From assembly GCA_965649295.1 (NCBI GenBank), contig CBFGKH010000002.1, positions 96,001 through 160,000 of the forward strand: a DNA stretch of 64,000 nucleotides, written 5' to 3'. Below are positions 6,387 to 49,812 of the stretch, piece by piece (the first letter of the stretch is position 1; each line of letters opens with the position of its first letter). Source of the stretch: a candidate division WOR-3 bacterium. Its GTDB lineage: Bacteria > Hydrothermota > Tepidihabitantia > Tepidihabitantales > Tepidihabitantaceae. Below the pieces are notes generated by a model. That model did no database searches. It saw only the letters and a program-made list of their open reading frames with translations, and was not told where the DNA came from. The position numbers and the translations under genes are program-made.

Positions 6387-6764
6387 CTAGGGCGAGGGTG
6401 GAGCGCTGATGTCGAAGACACCGGTGCGGATCTGAGCGAGCACAGCCGGGTCCAGGCCGCGGGCAGCCCACTTGGCGATGAGTATCTCGGCAGCGCGGGC
6501 AAAGGCGTCACCGGAGATGCCCTGCTGCCGCGAGAGGCGAAAGAGCTCGCGGCCAAAGTCGAGATACGGAACATAGAGCACGGTCTGGACACCGTTCTGG
6601 TTGAGTACGGTCTTCACCGCGGTCTCCATCTCGCAGAGCGAGACCACGGCGGCAGCGTAGCGTTCGAGCATCTGTTGCCGCAGTTCGTCGAGTGTCTGCT
6701 TGGTGCGGCCAGTGTCGAACTTCCGGTTCCAGCGCCTGATTCTACTGTTGGCATCAGCGGCCAT
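6387..6764 (-). CDS. Small helical protein resembling the SIRV2-type (Adnaviria/rudivirus) major capsid protein; putative DNA-wrapping protein
   Basis: Strong SD (AAAGGAGG) and ATG. Motifs RxxxWxxKF, VxxVLxQxG-x8-YxxFG, G-SG.A and PxVL are collinear with the rudivirus coat protein sequence as recalled. Confidence 0.75.
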   Translation of the reverse strand: MAADANSRIRRWNRKFDTGRTKQTLDELRQQMLERYAAAVVSLCEMETAVKTVLNQNGVQTVLYVPYLDFGRELFRLSRQQGISGDAFARAAEILIAKWAARGLDPAVLAQIRTGVFDISAPPSP

Positions 6765-6806
6765 TGTTCTCCTCCTTTCTTTTGGGGCTTACTGTCTCTT
6801 CATCTG

Positions 6807-6844
6807 GTTATACGCGCAGGTGAGGAGTCTAGAGCAGAAGGAAT
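6807..6844 (-). promoter_or_regulatory. Conserved 38-bp terminal motif, copy A (AT-N5-CyGCTC-N12-CwGyGCsTATAAC)
   Basis: Ungapped alignment with 19483-19520(-) and 50237-50274(+): 17 of 38 positions identical in all three. TATAAC lies about 43 nt upstream of the capsid-like gene ATG. Confidence 0.7.
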
Positions 6845-7164
6845 GATAGCAAGTGATAACTCGTCGGTTCTCCATTGGTTATGCCGATACAGGGCTGGGC
6901 AGGAAGCAGAAGGGCTGGAAGGGGGAGTCACTCCCGGGATGAGATGGGGTACTGGTTGCGGGGCTATTTGACACAGCAGGGTGAGAAGCTGTCGCAAGGC
7001 GACGGCGAAGGCTTGGGCCGGAGGCAGGCGTGGCTTGAGTTGCCGGAACAAGGGCGACACGAGAACCGCAATTAGCGGCGAGGGCTGTGGGCTAGCGAGC
7101 AGCAGGGGCAGTCAGGAATCGAGCGATGGTGGCAGCGCTAGGGCTAGGGCCGGGTGCAGGCTTG
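6829..7164. repeat. Degenerate 12-bp-period intergenic array A with CCCGGG core (6933-6938)
   Basis: In 12-mers from 7021, AG occupies columns 6-7 in 10 of 12 units (12 of 19 from 6937). AGCAGAAG recurs exactly 72 bp apart (6833, 6905). Confidence 0.75.
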
Positions 7165-7166
7165 GC

Positions 7167-9239
7167 CTAATTGCTGGTGAAGCCGGCGCGGCGGCGACGG
7201 CGGGGCCGAATCGCGTCGCCATAGACTTGGCGGATGGTTTCGTCAACGACAGCGTCCATCTGGCGGGATGTTGGGGTCGGGCGGCCAAAGGGGGTGCCGA
7301 AGTTGATACGGGCGAGGAGTCGGTCAGCCAGCGAGGAGCGCTCGCGGCCCAGTTCTTCGAGGACAGCGACGAGCCGGTCAACATCGGCTTCGGTGTTCTC
7401 GATGCTGAAACTCACCCGGACTAGGCCGATGAGCAGCCGCTCCATCAGGCGGGGCCAGACCGCAAGGCCCAAGTGGGCAATCGTGTCCTTGGTGCGGCCG
7501 ATGCCGAGCAGCTTTTTGACATACATGTTGACGCAGAAGCAGCCGTTGCGGACGCCGATGCCGCCGCGCTCGGCGAGCAGCCGGGCAGCCCGGTTGTGAG
7601 GAATGTGCCTGATAGCAAAGCTGAGGATGCCGCCCTTGCAGCCGAACCGACCGCATTCTGGGTCCTGAACACCGTAAAGGCGCAGGGCCGGGTTCTGGCG
7701 CAGCTTTGCTAGGGCATAGGCGGTGAGCCGGGTCTCTTCGGCATTCACCAGGTCCATGCCGATTCTTTCGAGCAGGTCAATTGCTTTGCCCAGGGCAGCG
7801 ATGCCGGCGACATTCTCCTCGCCGGAAGGACAGGCAGCAGCCAGTTGCTCGTTGACAAGTTCGCGGCGAATGATGAGGCCACCGGAGCCGAACGGCGCGT
7901 GCATCTTGTGGGCGGAGAAGGCGAGCAAGTCAATGCCGGTTTCAGCCATTCGAACCGGACGGTGGGCGGCAAGCTGGGCCGCGTCAACAAAGAGGAGGGC
8001 ATGGTAGTGACGACAGACCGCACCAATCGCGGCGAGGTCGTTGAAGGTGCCCATCACGTTGGAGGCACCGCAGACCGCGACGAGCCGGACCCGGGGTGAG
8101 TCGGGGTTTGAGTTCGCGTTGTAGTGGCGCAGCCGGGCTTCGAGGGCGTCAATGTCAATGAAGCCCTCGTCGTCAACCGGCACCCGTTCGAGCTGGACAC
8201 CTTCGAGATGACGCCAGGGCAGCTCGTTGGAGTTGTGCTCGACCATCGTGTTGAGGACAACGGTCGCGCCGGCCGGAGCAGCAGCGGCAATTGCCGCAGT
8301 GGCGACGTTGACGGCTTCGGTGGTGTTGCAGGTGAAGAAGACCGCGTAGTCGGCAGCCGGTGCGCCGAAGAAGCGGTGGCAGCGGTCGCGTACCGCGGCG
8401 ATGACCTCGGGCCAGGCAGATTCGGGCAGGCGCCAGGCCCGACAGAAGGTCTGCCAGACCGGGATGAAAGTCGGTGTGCTCGCGCCATTGTCAAGGTTGG
8501 TGTAGGGCTGTTCGCCTTTGTCAGTGGGCACGGTCAGCTCGCGGCCAACCAGCAGCTCGCGCAGGCGATAAAGCAGCTCAGCCCCCACAAGACCATTGAG
8601 GCCGTCGGCGAAAACCTGGTCGGGCGTTAGGGCGGGGCCGCGGGCGTTGATGAACGTATCCGGGCCGCGCTGCCGGGCAATGAGCAGGGCCCGGGCTAGG
8701 GCAATGACACCGATGATGTTCGGCGTACCGGCTTCGAGCCGGTCAGGCAGGTCAGCCCAAGCGATTGTTTCGGGTGAGACCATCTTGATGGTGCCGCCGC
8801 CGGTCTCGTAGGGCACGCCAGCCGGAACGGCGCGGCGCGGCACTGCCGCGGCGTGGACTCCAAGCGGCAGGCCGAGGTCGGCACTGGTTACTGTCCTTAG
8901 TCGGGTGCCGGGCCGGAGGCTCGCTTCAAGCCGGCGCAGCCGGCGTTCGGTGCAGAAGACAACGATGTAGTCGCCGTCGGCGAGGCCGAGATGGTCGAGG
9001 ATGATGGAGCGGGCCGCTTCGTAGAGTTCGGTGGTGATGAGCGAGTGAAGACCGGTGCCGCGGTGGACATTCGAATAGCGGCCAAGTGCAAGCAGGATTG
9101 ACTGCTCGAGTTCGTCAAACGGCCCGGTCGTAGCGGTCGGATTGGAGTCTGGCACAGGCCATTGTAGCAGAACTGCCGGGCTCTGGCGAGTTCTGCCGGT
9201 TTGGGTTTTCGGCGCCGGGTGGGTAGGCCCGGAGGCCAT
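7167..9239 (-). CDS. Class V PLP aminotransferase / cysteine desulfurase-like protein with a partially duplicated N-terminal domain
   Basis: First module YSNVHRG...GGGT...LEAGTPN; second module NLDNGASTP, EHNSN, VDAAQ, FSAHKMHAPFG (PLP Lys) and GVRNGCFC. Confidence 0.85.
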   Translation of the reverse strand: MASGPTHPAPKTQTGRTRQSPAVLLQWPVPDSNPTATTGPFDELEQSILLALGRYSNVHRGTGLHSLITTELYEAARSIILDHLGLADGDYIVVFCTERRLRRLEASLRPGTRLRTVTSADLGLPLGVHAAAVPRRAVPAGVPYETGGGTIKMVSPETIAWADLPDRLEAGTPNIIGVIALARALLIARQRGPDTFINARGPALTPDQVFADGLNGLVGAELLYRLRELLVGRELTVPTDKGEQPYTNLDNGASTPTFIPVWQTFCRAWRLPESAWPEVIAAVRDRCHRFFGAPAADYAVFFTCNTTEAVNVATAAIAAAAPAGATVVLNTMVEHNSNELPWRHLEGVQLERVPVDDEGFIDIDALEARLRHYNANSNPDSPRVRLVAVCGASNVMGTFNDLAAIGAVCRHYHALLFVDAAQLAAHRPVRMAETGIDLLAFSAHKMHAPFGSGGLIIRRELVNEQLAAACPSGEENVAGIAALGKAIDLLERIGMDLVNAEETRLTAYALAKLRQNPALRLYGVQDPECGRFGCKGGILSFAIRHIPHNRAARLLAERGGIGVRNGCFCVNMYVKKLLGIGRTKDTIAHLGLAVWPRLMERLLIGLVRVSFSIENTEADVDRLVAVLEELGRERSSLADRLLARINFGTPFGRPTPTSRQMDAVVDETIRQVYGDAIRPRRRRRAGFTSN

Positions 9240-9408
9240 TGCTATTGACAGCGACCTGCCGCTGATTACAGAATATGATGTGCCGTGTGGGCTCTGAACA
9301 TCAGTCTTTAATGGTATGATTGCTGTGCAGTCTAGTGAAGACCCGAAAGGTGAGCGTCTAGGTCAATTGCTGTTATCGTCTTTTCAAACGATAGGAAAGG
9401 GGTTCGCA

Positions 9409-10734
9409 ATGCGTCAGGTCCTCTTGTCCCTTGTGCTGGCCGTAGCCGCAGCGTTGGGCGCGGAACTGCGCTGGCTCGGTTCGCTGAACACGCCCTATGC
9501 CGAGGCCCACGGTGTAGCGGCTGACGGCAGCACGGCAGTCGGCTGGGCCGGAGTGCTGAGTCCGCACCGTGCCTGGCTCTGGATTCGGGACTCGGGTATG
9601 ACGGTCATCCGGCCGCCGGCACCCGACCGGGATTGTGAAGCGTGGGGAATCTCGGCTGATGGCCGGGTGGTTGTCGGCTGTACCCATCCCGACAACACCA
9701 GCAACTACCGGGGGTTCTGCTGGAATCGCGACACGATGATTGTGCTGGGAACGCTGGGTGGCCTGACAAGCTGGGCGTATGCGGCGTCGGCCGACGGCTG
9801 GGTTGTTGTCGGCGGTGCCGAGCATTTCTCGGGCTACAATCACGCCTTCCGCTGGCGGCCGGATTCAGGGATGCAGGATTTGGGCGTGCTGCCCGGCGCC
9901 CTGCGCAGTGTTGCCCGGGCGGTGTCGCTTGATGGCGGAGTTGTGGTCGGCTGGTCCGGCTTTCCCGGCCAGATTCACAATGCCTTCCGTTGGGAAGACG
10001 GCCAAATGACAAACATCCACAACCCGAGCTTCGGCGGCAGCGAGGGGCTCGGCGTATCGGGCGACGGGCAGGTCGCAGTCGGTGCTTGGGGGCCGCAGTC
10101 ATTGACCCCCTGCCGGCCGTTCCGTTGGACCGCGGCTACTGGCATGTACGACTTGGGAACGCTGGGTGGCGATTGGGGTGAAGCTTGGGCCGCCAATCGC
10201 GATGGCTCGATTGTTGTCGGCTGGTCAGAAAGAAGCCAAGGCAACTGGGCCGCCTTTCGTTGGAGCGAAGCAACCGGAATGGAAGACCTCAACGCCGTCT
10301 ATCCCGATCTGCTGAGTCCAGGTTCAGTGCTCAGGGACGCAATGGCCATCTCGCCTGATGGCCGATTTATCGCCGGCCGCGGCTACAATGCTGCTACCGG
10401 TGTTGATGAGGCATACCTTCTTGACACTGGTAGTTCAGCGTTTAGCACCGAGAATCATCGGCCGGCCGCAAATAGCGGTGCACAACTGACCAGTTCGCCT
10501 AACCCATTCCGGCAGAGTACAACCTTGAGTGTGTCCGTTCCGTTCCGGACTGCGATTGAACTGGCGGTTTTTGATCTGAGCGGCAAACCGGTCGCCGAAC
10601 TGCTGAATGCGGTTGTTGAGGCCGGCAGTTATGCCCTACCGCTGACTTCTGTTGGACTGGCCAGCGGTACTTATGTCTGCGTCCTCAAAGCCGGTACTAG
10701 CGTCGTTAGCACCCGACTGGTGAGGACGAACTAG
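9409..10734 (+). CDS. Secreted HAF-repeat beta-propeller protein with T9SS-like CTD
   Basis: Repeats A.G.SADG.VVVG...HAFRW...GM.DLG.L; signal peptide MRQVLLSLVLA after a GGAAAGG SD; CTD PNPFRQ...FDLSGK...SGTYV. Confidence 0.9.
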   Translation: MRQVLLSLVLAVAAALGAELRWLGSLNTPYAEAHGVAADGSTAVGWAGVLSPHRAWLWIRDSGMTVIRPPAPDRDCEAWGISADGRVVVGCTHPDNTSNYRGFCWNRDTMIVLGTLGGLTSWAYAASADGWVVVGGAEHFSGYNHAFRWRPDSGMQDLGVLPGALRSVARAVSLDGGVVVGWSGFPGQIHNAFRWEDGQMTNIHNPSFGGSEGLGVSGDGQVAVGAWGPQSLTPCRPFRWTAATGMYDLGTLGGDWGEAWAANRDGSIVVGWSERSQGNWAAFRWSEATGMEDLNAVYPDLLSPGSVLRDAMAISPDGRFIAGRGYNAATGVDEAYLLDTGSSAFSTENHRPAANSGAQLTSSPNPFRQSTTLSVSVPFRTAIELAVFDLSGKPVAELLNAVVEAGSYALPLTSVGLASGTYVCVLKAGTSVVSTRLVRTN

Positions 10735-19520: not shown

Positions 19521-19644
19521 GAATGTCTTGGGATGTGGCGTCGGGTTGCGGGGAACGGGTTGTATATCGGAAAGTACACAGGCCGCGGGCTAGGAAGCAT
19601 GGCCTAACTTCCGGTTTGTCAACTGATTAGCCGTAGGAATCGTT

Positions 19645-19944
19645 TCTTGGCCCCCCATCCCGGGGACTGTCCCGGGAGTGGTCTCGGATTGGCTCTACGA
19701 GCTGCTTGCTCGCGTGGTTTGTCCGGTTCTTGGTGGTGCTATTGCGCGAGGAGTTGCCCAAGCGGTCTGGGGCTGGGCCGGTTCGGCTGATTGGCTAACT
19801 GCTCCTAGGCCCGATTCGGCGATTGCTGGCCAAGACGTTCTTGCCAGCGCTGGGTAATGCTCTTTTCTAGCTCTCTCGGCTGCTGCTGGTCAGCATGTTG
19901 GGCAGCGGGCTGGTCAGCAGGTGCCGATAGGGGTCTGGTCGAGA
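19645..19944. repeat. Degenerate 12-bp-period intergenic array B with tandem CCCGGG cores (19659, 19671)
   Basis: In 12-mers from 19645, columns 2-3 are pyrimidine-pyrimidine in 22 of 25 units (GTC/GTT/GCT/CTT), and A clusters at columns 8-10. Confidence 0.85.
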
Positions 19945-19950
19945 CCGATG

Positions 19951-21681
19951 CTAGTGGGGTAGCTGCTTTTTGGCGGCGAGCCGGTTGAAGCCGTCGGCAA
20001 GAAGACCGGCGACAGCAGTAATGAGCAGCGTGCTGCCAGCGGTGAGTGGCTCGCTTGGGCCTTCGAGGTGGATGCGGCCGACTGGTTTCTTGCCGTCAAT
20101 GACCGGCCAGCTTTGAATCTGAGCGGTGTCAATGATGTCGAAGGGGCCGAGCCGTTGGGCCGGAACGGGGTCGAGCCCGCCGTGCTTTGCTACAACCTGG
20201 CCGTTCTGCAGGGCGATGCCGTTATTGAAACGAAGGGCGGTACAGAGCAGGGTGAGGGCTTCGGCCAGGAAGTCGGCGGGTTCGAGATTGATGCCGGCAA
20301 GGCCGGTCAGTCCCAGTAGCAGAGCCTGCTCGCGGTCGCGGGCCAGGGCAATTTTGAAGAGCAGTCGGTTGGTGCTCACTGCCTCGGCAACGACCCGGAG
20401 CTTGCGAAAGGTTCGGCCAGCAGCTTCGAGCAGCTCCAAGGCTGCGTCGGTCTGGTTCTGGGCGAGGCGGAAGCAGCCGTATTGGAATCGGGCAGTGGCG
20501 AGGGCATAGCTCTCCTCGGCATCAGCCAAGAGTTCGATGGCGGCGTCAAAGGCGGCCGCGGCCTGGCTTGGTTCCTCTTGGGCAGCAAAGATGCGGCCGA
20601 GCACGAGCAGGGCACCAGCCTCGACTGGTCGCGCACCAGTTGCTTGGGCTAGGGTCAATGATTCGTCGCCGTGGTGTCGGGCAGTGGCGAGGTCGTGCTG
20701 GTCGAGGGCAAGCTCGGCCAGGCGCGAGTGGACGAGTGCCTGCAGCCGACGATCGCCAGCAGCGATTGAGCGGTCAAGGGCCTGCTGATAGGTGGTTCGG
20801 GCGCTGGTAAGGTTGCCCTGGCGTTGGTAAGCGAGGCCGAGATTGGCGAGGATGTCGCCGTAGGCGGATGGGGTGTCGGGTGTTGGCGCCCTGGTGAGCT
20901 CGTCAGCGGCCCGGCGAAAGAAGTCAATGGCCTGGCCAAGCTGATTGCGGTGAAGATAAAGCTCGCCGAGGCAGTTGCAGGTGTCGCTAATGGTCTCATG
21001 CCGGCCTTGGACAGCGTCGTCTTGCAGCACGCGTTCAAGGCAGTCAACTGCGTCTTCCCAGCGGCCGAGCGCTTCGAGCGCCCAGCCGAGGTTGTAGGTG
21101 ATGACAATCTTGGTGCGGATATCGCCCTGCTCTTCGGCGAGATTGTAGGCCTGCTGGTAGTAGGTGAGGGCGGTCTCATGGTCGCCTTGCAGGCCGGCAA
21201 TGTTGGCGAGCATCATCAGAACCGAATATTCGGCATCAGGTGGACCTTGTATCTGCCAGTGCTGGCGGGCCTTCTCGAAGAGGGCGCGGGCCTCGTCATA
21301 GGCGCCACGGGTGTAGGCGATTTCGGCCGCAACGTAGTCATTCGAACCGAGAATGTGCTCGCGTTTGGCGGGTGAGAGGTCGGCGGCCGCGCGGATGAGC
21401 TGGCGGAACTCTTCGGCTTCAGCGAGCAGGCCGATGCCAATCATCGCCTCGGCAGCACGGATAGCATATTCGCCCATCCGGCGCTGATTCCCGAGGCGGT
21501 GGGCAGTCATAATCGCTTGGTGGAACAGCTCGCTGGCCTGGGTTGGGTCTTGAGGACAGATGCGGCGGGCGGTCTGGAATTGCTGCTCGGCCCGCTCAGC
21601 CGAGTCGGTCACCGGGCTGGTGCCCGCAGGCGCGGTATCGGGACTCTCCTTGCCGGAATCGTCATCCATCGCTACGGCCAT
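19951..21681 (-). CDS. Tetratricopeptide-repeat (MalT-like TPR) protein
   Basis: Many TPR motifs (YNLGWALEALGRWEDA, NLGLAYQRQGNLTSA); short GAF-like C-terminus. Confidence 0.85.
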   Translation of the reverse strand: MAVAMDDDSGKESPDTAPAGTSPVTDSAERAEQQFQTARRICPQDPTQASELFHQAIMTAHRLGNQRRMGEYAIRAAEAMIGIGLLAEAEEFRQLIRAAADLSPAKREHILGSNDYVAAEIAYTRGAYDEARALFEKARQHWQIQGPPDAEYSVLMMLANIAGLQGDHETALTYYQQAYNLAEEQGDIRTKIVITYNLGWALEALGRWEDAVDCLERVLQDDAVQGRHETISDTCNCLGELYLHRNQLGQAIDFFRRAADELTRAPTPDTPSAYGDILANLGLAYQRQGNLTSARTTYQQALDRSIAAGDRRLQALVHSRLAELALDQHDLATARHHGDESLTLAQATGARPVEAGALLVLGRIFAAQEEPSQAAAAFDAAIELLADAEESYALATARFQYGCFRLAQNQTDAALELLEAAGRTFRKLRVVAEAVSTNRLLFKIALARDREQALLLGLTGLAGINLEPADFLAEALTLLCTALRFNNGIALQNGQVVAKHGGLDPVPAQRLGPFDIIDTAQIQSWPVIDGKKPVGRIHLEGPSEPLTAGSTLLITAVAGLLADGFNRLAAKKQLPH

Positions 21682-46991: not shown

Positions 46992-47751
46992 GACCGGCTC
47001 AGGACGAGGCCCGACTGCCGGCGAGCGGCTGGGCATCGTCATCACCGCGACGATTATCGTCGGTTTCATCGTTGTCTTTCTGGTCGCGGGTCGGCCGATC
47101 GTTCACTATTTCCGGCATCCTGATGAGCTGCGGCTTTTAGTGCGAAGCTGGGGCGCTTGGGCGCCACTGGGCATCGTTGTGTTCCAGATGCTGCAGGTGA
47201 TTGTGGCACCACTGCCCGGTAACGCGATGTCGTTTGCGGCCGGCTATGCGTTTGGGGTCTGGCCGACGATTCTCTGGCTGATGTTTGGGGTGATACTGGG
47301 CGCGACAGTTGACTTTCTTTTGGTGCGGCTGGTCGGTCGGCAGGTGCTCCGGTTCTTTATCGCTGAGGAGCGGCTGGCGCGGCTTGATGCGGTGGTGCTG
47401 CGGCGCGGGACCTTCTATATCTTCCTGCTGCTGCTTGTGCCCAATCCGGTTGGCGATTGGGTCTATTATCTTGCCGGGCTGACTTCGATGCCGCTACTGC
47501 TCTTCTGGGGCTTGGTTCTGGTTGCCCGGCTGCCGTCGAATCTGCTCGAATGCTGGGTTGGCTCGACTGCTACCGGTTTTGGCTGGCGCGAGTGGGTGAT
47601 ACTGGCCGCAGTAGTTGGGGCACTGGCGCTCCTCTACTATCAGTTCCATGACCGAATCGAGTCCCTGCTTGACCGCATCACCGCGCAGCGGCTGAAGAAG
47701 AGCCGCCGGCAGCAAGCCGGCGGCCCGAATCAGAACGAGTCTCAGGCCTAG
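46981..47751 (+). CDS. TVP38/TMEM64 (DedA/VTT) membrane protein
   Basis: LQVIVAPLPG..AAGYAFG, D.VYYLAGLT. Confidence 0.88.
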   Translation: MSARTGSGRGPTAGERLGIVITATIIVGFIVVFLVAGRPIVHYFRHPDELRLLVRSWGAWAPLGIVVFQMLQVIVAPLPGNAMSFAAGYAFGVWPTILWLMFGVILGATVDFLLVRLVGRQVLRFFIAEERLARLDAVVLRRGTFYIFLLLLVPNPVGDWVYYLAGLTSMPLLLFWGLVLVARLPSNLLECWVGSTATGFGWREWVILAAVVGALALLYYQFHDRIESLLDRITAQRLKKSRRQQAGGPNQNESQA

Positions 47752-49709
47752 GGCTGAACAGTCAGCTTGACGGTCGCTGTGCGGGCGCGGGTCTGGACCC
47801 GGCAGTAGTAGATACCACTGGCGAGGCCGCTAATCACCAAGGAAGAGTTGTCGAAGGCAGCGGTGCGGAGGAGCCGACCAGCGGCGTCGTAAATTGCCAG
47901 CGTGGCCGACCCGTCGAGCGGGCCAGCGGTCAATTGGAGAATGGCAGTGCCGCGGCAGGGGTTGGGGCTGACAGCAAGGAGCGGGCCGATTGGTAGCGTA
48001 GTAATCTCGCTCGTACCGGTCCAGGGTTCGCCGGCAAAGCCGACAGCGTCGAGCGCGCAGTTACTGGTCTCGTTGATACGGACATAGCGGCAGGAGTCAA
48101 GACTGCCAAGGTCGAAGCTCTGAGTGCCGGTACCAGAACCGAGGCTAGTGTAGGTGCCCCAAGGGTCAACCGCGACCTGGACAGTGTAGGAGCCGGTAGC
48201 ATAGACAGTCAGGTCAGCGCCAGGACGATTGCGGCAGGCGATTTTTGGGTCGAGTTCAAAGATGATGCTGCTGGACGGGCCGACCCGGTAGGAGCGCAGG
48301 TCAGGGGGGCCGAGTGCGTCGGCACCGGTGCCAGACAGGACATGGCTATCGTCAACCCGCTTGAGGGCAAAGACACGATAGGCGTAGTTCAGCGGTTCAC
48401 TCGTTGGCCGGGCCAGCGGAATGTTGAGCGTGACACCGCCGGTGCTCGGCACAACCACGCCGGTCAGGGTCTTAGGCTCGTAGCCGTTGGCCCAGACGCG
48501 AATATCATAGCTGCCCGGCGCGACCATCTTGTGGAAATCACCGGTCAATGGGTGGGTGTAGCTGTGCCAGCGCCGGGGACTCGTGACCTCGACCCGGGCG
48601 CAGAGCGGCTCGCCGGTAACCGAGTCGGTGACGATGCCGTTGATGCCCCAACCGGCCGCGGTCACCTGGTAGAGTAGGGCGCGGATGTTGGCAGTGCAGA
48701 TTGAGTCAATCTTCGGTCGGGTTGAGGGCAGGGCGGTCTCAATTGTGTTTGCCAGGGTGCCGAAACAGCCGAAGACCATGTCCTGACACGAGCCGTGGAC
48801 CTCATACCAGTCAAAGCCGTTGATGGGCGTCAGTCGGGTTGTGCTCGAACCGTAGGTCGAGTCAGCATAGGCCTGGGCAAGAAAGATAATCCAGGCTGAA
48901 TCGGGCGGGTCAATCGGCGTGTTGTCCCAGAGATAGTTCACATAGGCCGCAGTCGTGTGGTATTCGTACTCGTTGGTCGGGACATTCCGCTCGGAGTGGC
49001 GGCGCAGGGCGCGCGTCTCGGGCTGGCTGTAGGGAACCGCGTAGTTCTCCCATTCCCAGCCGTAGTCACGGTTGAGGTCAACACCGGCGTCGTTGGTGCG
49101 CCGGTTGGCGACGTGGCCGTCGGGGTTGAAGACCGGGATAATCTGGAACTCGCGGGTGTTGACCAGTTCCTGAATCTGGGGATTGGTGGCGTAGTTGGCG
49201 GTCAGGTGCTGGAGCAGGGCAAGGCAGATTTCGGTGCTTGTCTTCTCGTTGCCGTGATGAACGCCAATGACGCGCAGCCGCGGCTTTGGGGCTGGTGTGT
49301 GGGCGTTACCGGTTACATAGATGACCGGAATCATCCGGTTGCCGGCCGAGAAACCGAGGGTTTCGAGCCGGGTGATTTCCGGATAGAGCGAGGCCTGGGA
49401 TACAAGAATGCTGCAGGCCTGGGCATAGGTGTAGTAGGTGACAAGGTCACGCTCGGCTTGGGCCACATAGTCGTTAACAAGAACCGTGACCGGATAGCCG
49501 CGGGCGCGGATTTGCCGAATCGTCATGTCATCGGCATAGACCTGCAGGAACCCAGGGCCGGCACCGTCAACATCGAGCCGAAGCTCGCGGGCGAGAGCAC
49601 GACCAGCCTCGCGGTTAGGAATGTCAACACGGATGATGCGCACCGGCTCGGCGCCAAAGGCAGAGGCAAGTGCGACTGTCAGACAGATGAGGACAACATA
49701 GGTTTTCAT
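47748..49709 (-). CDS. Secreted M14 zinc carboxypeptidase with regulatory-like domain and T9SS-like CTD
   Basis: HHGNE, NPDG, NRR.N..GVDLNRDY, SQPET, WY.VHGS.QD; C-terminal SPNP..YDAAGR..SGIYY. Confidence 0.9.
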   Translation of the reverse strand: MKTYVVLICLTVALASAFGAEPVRIIRVDIPNREAGRALARELRLDVDGAGPGFLQVYADDMTIRQIRARGYPVTVLVNDYVAQAERDLVTYYTYAQACSILVSQASLYPEITRLETLGFSAGNRMIPVIYVTGNAHTPAPKPRLRVIGVHHGNEKTSTEICLALLQHLTANYATNPQIQELVNTREFQIIPVFNPDGHVANRRTNDAGVDLNRDYGWEWENYAVPYSQPETRALRRHSERNVPTNEYEYHTTAAYVNYLWDNTPIDPPDSAWIIFLAQAYADSTYGSSTTRLTPINGFDWYEVHGSCQDMVFGCFGTLANTIETALPSTRPKIDSICTANIRALLYQVTAAGWGINGIVTDSVTGEPLCARVEVTSPRRWHSYTHPLTGDFHKMVAPGSYDIRVWANGYEPKTLTGVVVPSTGGVTLNIPLARPTSEPLNYAYRVFALKRVDDSHVLSGTGADALGPPDLRSYRVGPSSSIIFELDPKIACRNRPGADLTVYATGSYTVQVAVDPWGTYTSLGSGTGTQSFDLGSLDSCRYVRINETSNCALDAVGFAGEPWTGTSEITTLPIGPLLAVSPNPCRGTAILQLTAGPLDGSATLAIYDAAGRLLRTAAFDNSSLVISGLASGIYYCRVQTRARTATVKLTVQP

Positions 49710-49812
49710 AGGTACTGGACAATCATACACCACCCCAGCGCCGGTTTCCAGCCCTGGCTAGCGACTAACCACCAAGGTCACTAAGGCACTAAGGGGTGAG
49801 AACCGGAATCCG

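Follow-up and report, generated by a model that had tools for sequence, protein, structure and literature searches.

The DNA analyzed here is a stretch of 64,000 nucleotides (the window) from the genome G000. Two minus-strand genes in it are separated by a gap of 402 bases, 6765-7166, and the gap contains the periodic stretch 6829-7164, hereafter array A. The features of the locus are as follows.

6387-6764, minus strand: gene for a protein of 125 aa, its start 41 nt from the box at 6805-6815
6805-6815, plus strand: promoter-like box TGGTTATACGC, at the element's 5′ edge
6857-6882, plus strand: leader inverted repeat TAACT...CAT...GTTAT, the counterpart of cTAACt...CAA...GTTAG in the family described below
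6916-6939, plus strand: head of two units, TGGAAGGGGGAG TCACTCCCGGGA, which holds the palindrome GGGAGTCACTCCC at 6923-6935
6940-7167, plus strand: 19 array units of twelve bases each, which continue the register of the head from 6916
6925-7166, minus strand: complement of the array, C-rich and G-poor with CT every 12 nt, which follows the desulfurase stop codon and runs into the head hairpin
7167-9239, minus strand: cysteine desulfurase-like gene, 690 aa (Pfam Aminotran_5, E = 4.3e-72), its stop codon adjoining the array
9316-10734, plus strand: gene for a HAF-repeat protein with a T9SS type A sorting domain (NCBIfam), divergent from the desulfurase gene

The initial annotation had placed array A immediately upstream of a capsid-like gene, and this part of it has to be corrected. 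Because gene 7167-9239 is on the minus strand, the array lies at its 3′-end and not upstream of it, and the product is a cysteine desulfurase family protein; Pfam, NCBIfam, and PDB sequence searches of the flanking genes found no capsid-like gene beside the array. The desulfurase-like protein scores 211 bits against the NCBIfam SufS subfamily model, under the cut-off of 475. It has an N-terminal extension of ~278 aa ahead of the Aminotran_5 domain and a sub-threshold match (156 bits, cut-off 800) to the family 2A encapsulin cargo model NF041166, and no encapsulin shell gene was seen adjoining it. The product of 9316-10734 had no match in a PDB sequence search. The 125-aa ORF, which had no match in Pfam or NCBIfam, is a real gene, since the differences between related strains sit on every third base. 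A homologue with 44% identity occurs in a metagenome locus (L058), where it is convergent with the desulfurase gene, whereas in the window the two genes stand in tandem, so the segment was inverted in one lineage.

The periodicity itself was described accurately. AG falls at columns 6-7 in 10 of the 12 12-mers from 7021 (the exceptions are 7045, with AA, and 7081, with TG), and of the 20 units from 6925, 18 have a purine at column 1 (A in 6, G in 12). The position-specific composition test that had been asked for, a chi-square over 6925-7164 against 1000 dinucleotide-preserving shuffles, gave z = 10.6 at period 12, a value reached by none of the shuffles, and z = -0.17, 1.11, 0.71, and -1.30 at periods 10, 11, 13, and 14. 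Periods 3 (z = 8.65) and 6 (z = 10.6) were also strong, and a share of the period-12 chi-square therefore comes from these sub-periods. Fourier power was significant at 6 and 3 but not at exactly 12 (z = 1.41), where 95 of 1000 shuffles equaled or exceeded it. Given the share of the sub-periods and this null Fourier result, the 12-specific component was tested on its own, with 5000 shuffles and the maximum taken over all phases and dinucleotides. The best phase-locked dinucleotide over 6940-7167 was AG, in 12 of 19 units, and the shuffles had a mean of 6.35 and a maximum of 11, none reaching 12. The plus strand of 6829-7164 is rich in G (139 G, 76 A, 67 C, 54 T), with a GC skew of +0.30 to +0.43 in 100-base windows starting at 6850-7100. 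As the initial annotation held, the array is neither a tandem repeat nor a CRISPR: Tandem Repeats Finder placed no array in 6765-7166 at a score of at least 30, there are no alternating conserved repeats, and a repeat search returned one two-copy direct repeat only. This repeat of 30 nt (7005-7034 versus 7137-7166, 80% identical) has a spacing of 132, or 11 x 12, and is evidence of an in-register internal duplication within array A.

The strength of periods 3 and 6 raises the question of whether the stretch codes, or until recently coded, for a low-complexity peptide, which would be Pro/Leu- or Ala/Pro/Ser/Thr-rich on the minus strand and Gly/Arg/Ser-rich on the plus strand. In favor of such a peptide, a single stop is all that interrupts each of two frames across the gap, and there are ORFs at 6981-7424 (plus strand, 147 aa) and 6800-7060 (minus strand, 86 aa). 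Against such a peptide, all six frames of array A contain stops, the 147-aa ORF is largely antisense to the desulfurase gene, and a codon-usage gene call leaves the gap 6765-7166 empty. The same holds beyond this locus, as none of the three sense frames stays open over 417 nt in 58 of the 63 standard copies of the family described below, and the dinucleotide that the family constrains would span the third codon position. We therefore regard a coding origin as extremely improbable, and the stretch is non-coding, as the initial annotation had it. Rfam at gathering scores returned two tRNAs and nothing else in the whole window, and at E <= 1 gave no relevant match for seven element loci including array A.

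Array A belongs to a family of elements of which G000 has ~65 copies, spread over all large contigs. The family emerged from genome-wide scans for phase-locked AG/CT, which gave several loci, and then for period 12 in general, which gave dozens more. Seven seed copies share the box GTATA(A/G)AGTTAG and a leader, and iterated nhmmer from these seeds yielded 63 standard copies, to which a handful of G-rich copies is added. A standard copy has, in order, a 5′ palindrome or box, the inverted repeat cTAACt...CAA...GTTAG, CCCCA, and the head TCCCGGGGAyTG TCCCGGGAGTGG, and the T of TCCCGGGGA serves as the register anchor. In 57 of the 63 copies a pyrimidine pair recurs at a phase of exactly 0 mod 12 from this anchor. 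In the composite of these 57, the pair opens 72-100% of units 0-22, 58% of unit 23, and 19-39% of units 24-43 (the last counted) over a background of ~25%, and this drop past unit 23 indicates a fixed array length of 23-24 units. Within the unit, the 12-column profile has pyrimidine at columns 1 (0.92) and 2 (0.90), T at column 3 (0.45), and G at column 12 (0.60), with few other columns constrained. An all-versus-all blastn of 67 arrays found one similar pair, C5/C10 (84%, 263 nt, 0 gaps). All copies are intergenic, and among the neighbors of the 67 listed elements no associated protein gene accompanies the arrays. The elements form a non-coding, multi-copy, lineage-specific family. Array A had been grouped with two further arrays in the window, and the grouping was correct, both being standard copies of its family.

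~19562-19950, plus strand: array B, a standard copy, which runs up to the stop codon of the convergent gene 19951-21681
~50179 down to 49800, minus strand: array C, a standard copy, upstream of the co-oriented gene 47748-49733

The placement of array A in the family rests on its parts. Its box, leader repeat, palindromic head, and phased units have the order and spacing of the family on the plus strand, as judged by eye. Seven standard copies have a box of the form (T/G/A)(G/A)GTTATACGC on the strand of the element, at a distance of 141-178 nt upstream from the anchor. A sigma-70 consensus scan of 6600-7400 found no promoter, and the promoter role of the box is for this reason only putative. 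Against the leader model, the leader of array A gave a weak nhmmer match (4.4 bits) placed on the minus strand; since the motif is an inverted repeat, it is compatible with both strands. Its TAAC and GTTAT are unchanged in related strains, among the differences listed. The palindrome GGGAGTCACTCCC at 6923-6935 matches in position the hairpin GGGGGTCACTCCCCC of the standard copy C2:223314. In the 19 units that follow the head, AG occupies columns 3-4 in 12 (A in 15, G in 16), and columns 1-2 hold at least one pyrimidine in all 19, two pyrimidines in 5, and two purines in none. The end of the final unit is the first base of the stop codon of 7167-9239.

With a pyrimidine pair at columns 1-2 on the leader strand in only 5 of 19 units, array A lacks the standard mark. 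It is absent from the 63 profile-search matches, and with the standard 12-column profile its best score, on whichever strand, is about -1 bit per unit, compared with a family mean of +2.35 and a minimum of +0.87. Because the standard profile fits neither strand, we place array A in a divergent class with C2:64658, C5:24728, and C10:72280, which share the AG dialect, locked in 12-15 of 19 units; two more copies show it weakly. An extreme copy at C1:373100-373392 (locus L091) has 105 G, 83 T, 27 A, and 13 C on the element strand, and in the C1:373379 copy at this locus 14 of 19 units have GT in fixed phase, a third mark dialect. On their G-rich strand, C5 and C10 bear a leader like that of the family, GCTAAGT...TGATKGC, and by this comparison the plus strand is likely array A's own. 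The core of array A had also been described as inverted relative to arrays B and C. The pyrimidine mark of B and C does lie on the leader strand and the CT of array A on the opposite one; the core itself gives no orientation, because GGGAGTCACTCCC is a palindrome. Judged by its sequence, array A is a divergent, G-rich copy of the family, marked by a pyrimidine-containing pair followed by AG. Two further possibilities were considered and rejected: segmental duplication together with a neighboring gene, as the 699-aa gene beside C2:64658 is unrelated to the desulfurase, and association with a common downstream gene family, as the genes after four G-rich copies are unrelated.

The most concrete alternative, raised by the composition of array A, is that the minus strand is the working one, so that the tail of the desulfurase mRNA carries a rut site and a pause hairpin and acts as a Rho-dependent terminator insulating the 125-aa gene. 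RhoTermPredict takes as a rut site a 78-nt stretch in which C/G is > 1 and C recurs every 11-13 nt, with a pause site in the form of a hairpin after it (PMC6407284). The minus strand of array A has this composition and spacing, with the palindrome at 6935-6923 as the hairpin, when the criteria rather than the program are applied. Over the 242 nt of 6925-7166 it contains 105 C, 52 G, 49 T, and 36 A (C/G = 2.02), every 78-nt window of it has a C/G of 1.63-2.62, and CT is phase-locked every 12 nt. It folds weakly (-52 kcal/mol, compared with -84 kcal/mol for the plus strand) and ranks 8th among 386 gene 3′ regions for C over G (genome mean -0.009 +/- 0.156). Several others of the top-ranked tails are likewise complementary to G-rich arrays, so that G-rich copies endow neighboring genes with some of the most C-rich 3′ tails of G000. 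The genome also encodes Rho. The placement of the G-rich copies is also suggestive, since six of the eight head-bearing elements face a convergent gene and four of the eight adjoin its stop codon, although the latter is not clearly commoner than among standard copies (16 of 63). Rho does not, however, explain the family, because the standard arrays are not C-rich on the marked strand (GC skew -0.51 to +0.34, mean ~0.05), and the skew of the arrays is independent of the orientation of the neighboring gene (p = 0.34). Known rut sites have no strict period, a pyrimidine precedes the phased C in only 9 of 19 units, and 230 nt is about three times the requirement of one Rho hexamer. According to a recent review, Rho binds 5 nt per subunit with linkers of 4-5 nt (PMC12360218), and an H-SELEX study found no consensus (PMC9499579). 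A Rho-dependent terminator on the minus strand is thus possible for array A but, in our judgment, not likely.

Folding does not account for the arrays and does not distinguish their strands. The minimum free energies of 24 of the 63 arrays match those of shuffles (z = -0.41 +/- 1.03 sense, -0.31 +/- 1.29 antisense), as do those of array A (z = -0.76 plus, +0.70 minus), and self-structure of the array was rejected as an explanation on these grounds. For the 63 leaders, folding in the sense and antisense directions is of equal stability (Wilcoxon p = 0.48), and neither G-U pairs nor fold energies of the leaders gave a strand signal; because both leader strands fold equally well, the hairpins do not call the strand. 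RNAalifold found no consensus pairs in the leader alignments. The hairpin P1 has an invariant 7-bp core with modest covariation outside it, at values that 13-18 of 500 shuffles reach, and its pairs 19-24 contain 22 cells altered on both sides, compared with 15.3 in shuffles.

These results bear on whether the element is read as RNA or as duplex DNA. A track with a 12-bp phase, starting from the palindromic sites of the box hairpin and the head, might position a DNA-binding or nucleoid protein specific to the lineage, or an ATPase filament keeping DNA at ~12 bp per turn. The leader motifs and head are palindromic and would suit dimeric DNA binders as well as they suit hairpins, so that the palindromes fit a duplex reading and a hairpin reading equally well. 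The equal stability of sense and antisense folds, the lack of excess structure in the arrays, and the presence of ~65 copies over all large contigs would also be expected of such a track. However, the relaxed repeat of B-DNA is not 12 bp, and the duplex reading needs a special partner for that reason. The stems also reach past the palindrome cores with two-sided changes, as in P1 pairs 19-24. Moreover, the neighbor upstream of the 67 listed elements is divergent in 43, co-oriented in 22, and a contig end in 2, and this mostly divergent arrangement suggests a transcription unit. On this evidence we consider a track read in duplex DNA to be distinctly unlikely.

The length of array A is retained in related strains. 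Three metagenome runs contain relatives of the array A locus at 6-9% divergence. A strain contig covering 6403-7357 differs at 83 positions with 0 gaps, and one covering 6403-7600 differs at 74 positions, with gaps of -1 at 7018 and +1 after 7024 that cancel within 6 nt. Comparison of orthologous loci had been suggested as a check for indels in multiples of 12; the related strains have no net indel, and a search of 40 relatives with the gap DNA found no match. The letters of the array, at 8-11% in short contigs of run X1, change at least as fast as those of the flanking genes (~7%), and the leader is also fast-changing, with at least ~20 differences in 6788-6894 in run X1, among those listed. 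Orthologues of the desulfurase are patchy, occurring in 5 of 44 genomes of the same taxonomic family at 52-59% identity, and no array lies beside the gene at these 5 other loci, so the element is not tied to its neighbors. At one of four metagenome desulfurase loci (L056), a pyrimidine-pair array follows the gene on the same strand, which we take for a coincidence.

The distribution of the family was searched with leader model R1, a sequence-only covariance model of the leader and head. R1 matches 38 of 44 genomes of the same taxonomic family, in 14 of 15 genera with 1-34 copies each, and, in a sample of the phylum, 9 of 13 genomes of this family and none of 127 genomes of 33 other families; because these counts rest on the leader model, they miss copies with other leaders. 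In 11 of 19 loci inspected from other genera, the pyrimidine pair opens 16-18 of the 18 units after the head, and the phased stretches of other genera are 18-30 units long when extended in register. Some loci there contain near-perfect tandem 12-mers with a unit of their own, such as TCCCCGGAGCGG repeated 18 times in L061 and CTGTGAGCCGCG repeated 24 times in L077. Such near-perfect 12-nt arrays with array-specific units occur in L061, L062, and L075-L077, and in some of these the complementarity of adjacent units could give rise to a series of small hairpins. From the near-perfect forms in other genera, the arrays seem to arise by in-register amplification and then to drift under a constraint on spacing.

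Amplification without any constraint is the basis of another explanation, in which a 12-base tandem repeat grew by slippage from the head and is now decaying without function, the family being a selfish or neutral repeat. The near-perfect tandem 12-mers of L061 and L077 and the 30-nt in-register duplication within array A are what such a history would leave, and an element untied to its neighbors, absent from the five other desulfurase loci, would also fit. On the other hand, substitutions have saturated the units in G000, and still 57 of 63 arrays stay in phase over ~23 units and stop at the same unit. This retention of register speaks against neutral decay, which would bring register-breaking indels, and the related strains have no net indel. 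The complete genome, moreover, lacks a Y1/RAYT transposase, and mobilization of the REP/RAYT kind was rejected because G000 has no Y1 transposase. Decay of a functionless repeat is accordingly, in our view, very unlikely.

The reading that we favor, tentatively and at somewhat less than even confidence, is that the element serves as a docking track, coded by spacing and carried on a transcript, to which a repeating protein assembly would bind. Exact spacing over ~280 nt, free sequence, a defined start, and a fixed end together call for a rigid periodic partner. Selection appears to keep the number of bases between marks and not the letters, and we propose that the track would be a single-stranded transcript with its marks spaced by a 12-nt step, and that each successive subunit of a repeating assembly, such as a ring stack or a helical polymer, would touch one mark, with the leader and head acting as the start point. 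Transcription, the relevant strand, and the protein partner are what we infer for such a track; the mostly divergent upstream neighbors suggest the first of these. Among the sequencing runs listed for this DNA none was of RNA, and raw-read run X4 yielded no matching read. A more specific form of this proposal, which we think unlikely as it stands, makes the family a nucleic-acid "ruler": a transcript or R-loop in which only the 12-nt distance is encoded, ~23 times, and which would template a helical or stacked-ring polymer of fixed length from the hairpin head. The dialects of the mark (pyrimidine pair, AG, and GT) would then be either tolerated or read by different partners.

The family partly resembles several known systems. 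Like REP elements and BIMEs, the copies are multiple, intergenic, hairpin-bearing, and lineage-specific; REP elements, however, are short palindromes, often linked to RAYT, without a phase-locked array of 280 nt. Sponge RNAs of the CsrB/RsmZ type are non-coding and function through many copies of a very short motif, as the elements of the family would, but their GGA motifs sit in hairpin loops at irregular spacing and are encoded by one or few genes per genome; the family, by contrast, has exact spacing, no special folding of its arrays, and ~65 copies. CRISPR and TIGR arrays share with the family a leader followed by a long array of short periodic units with variable parts. Their repeats are conserved, in contrast to the approximately two bases per 12 that the family keeps, and TIGR (Tas) arrays have two alternating conserved repeats of 8-12 nt, spacers of 9 nt, and processed RNAs of 36 nt (PMC12045711), which led us to rule them out. 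A further likeness is to rut sites, single-stranded RNA tracks with pyrimidine contacts ~11-13 nt apart (PMC6407284), and the minus strand of array A, C-rich and G-poor after a stop codon and leading to a hairpin, has this appearance. Unlike the family, rut sites are ~70-80 nt long and loosely defined, without a strict register or a conserved leader and head; the arrays extend over ~280 nt, keep their phase to the single base, are in most cases not C-rich, and are apparently preceded by a 5′ box of their own. We found no description of an element with a 12-nt period or spacing in the open full-text literature.

The ~65 elements make up ~1% of a small, streamlined genome of 2.3 Mb. They apparently hold a 12-base register and a count of units while nearly all letters are free, so that the information lies in spacing, and array A illustrates that the register can persist when the mark has switched from the pyrimidine pair to AG. 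A constraint of this kind implies a rigid periodic partner. If that partner is Rho, the elements would be the first phase-locked, modular Rho loading tracks, with a spacing rule that is directly testable. If it is not Rho, they would point to RNA- or DNA-templated protein assembly of a new kind in a hot-spring lineage that is uncultured, and, should the ruler reading be true, to templated protein assembly throughout the lineage, without a described bacterial counterpart.
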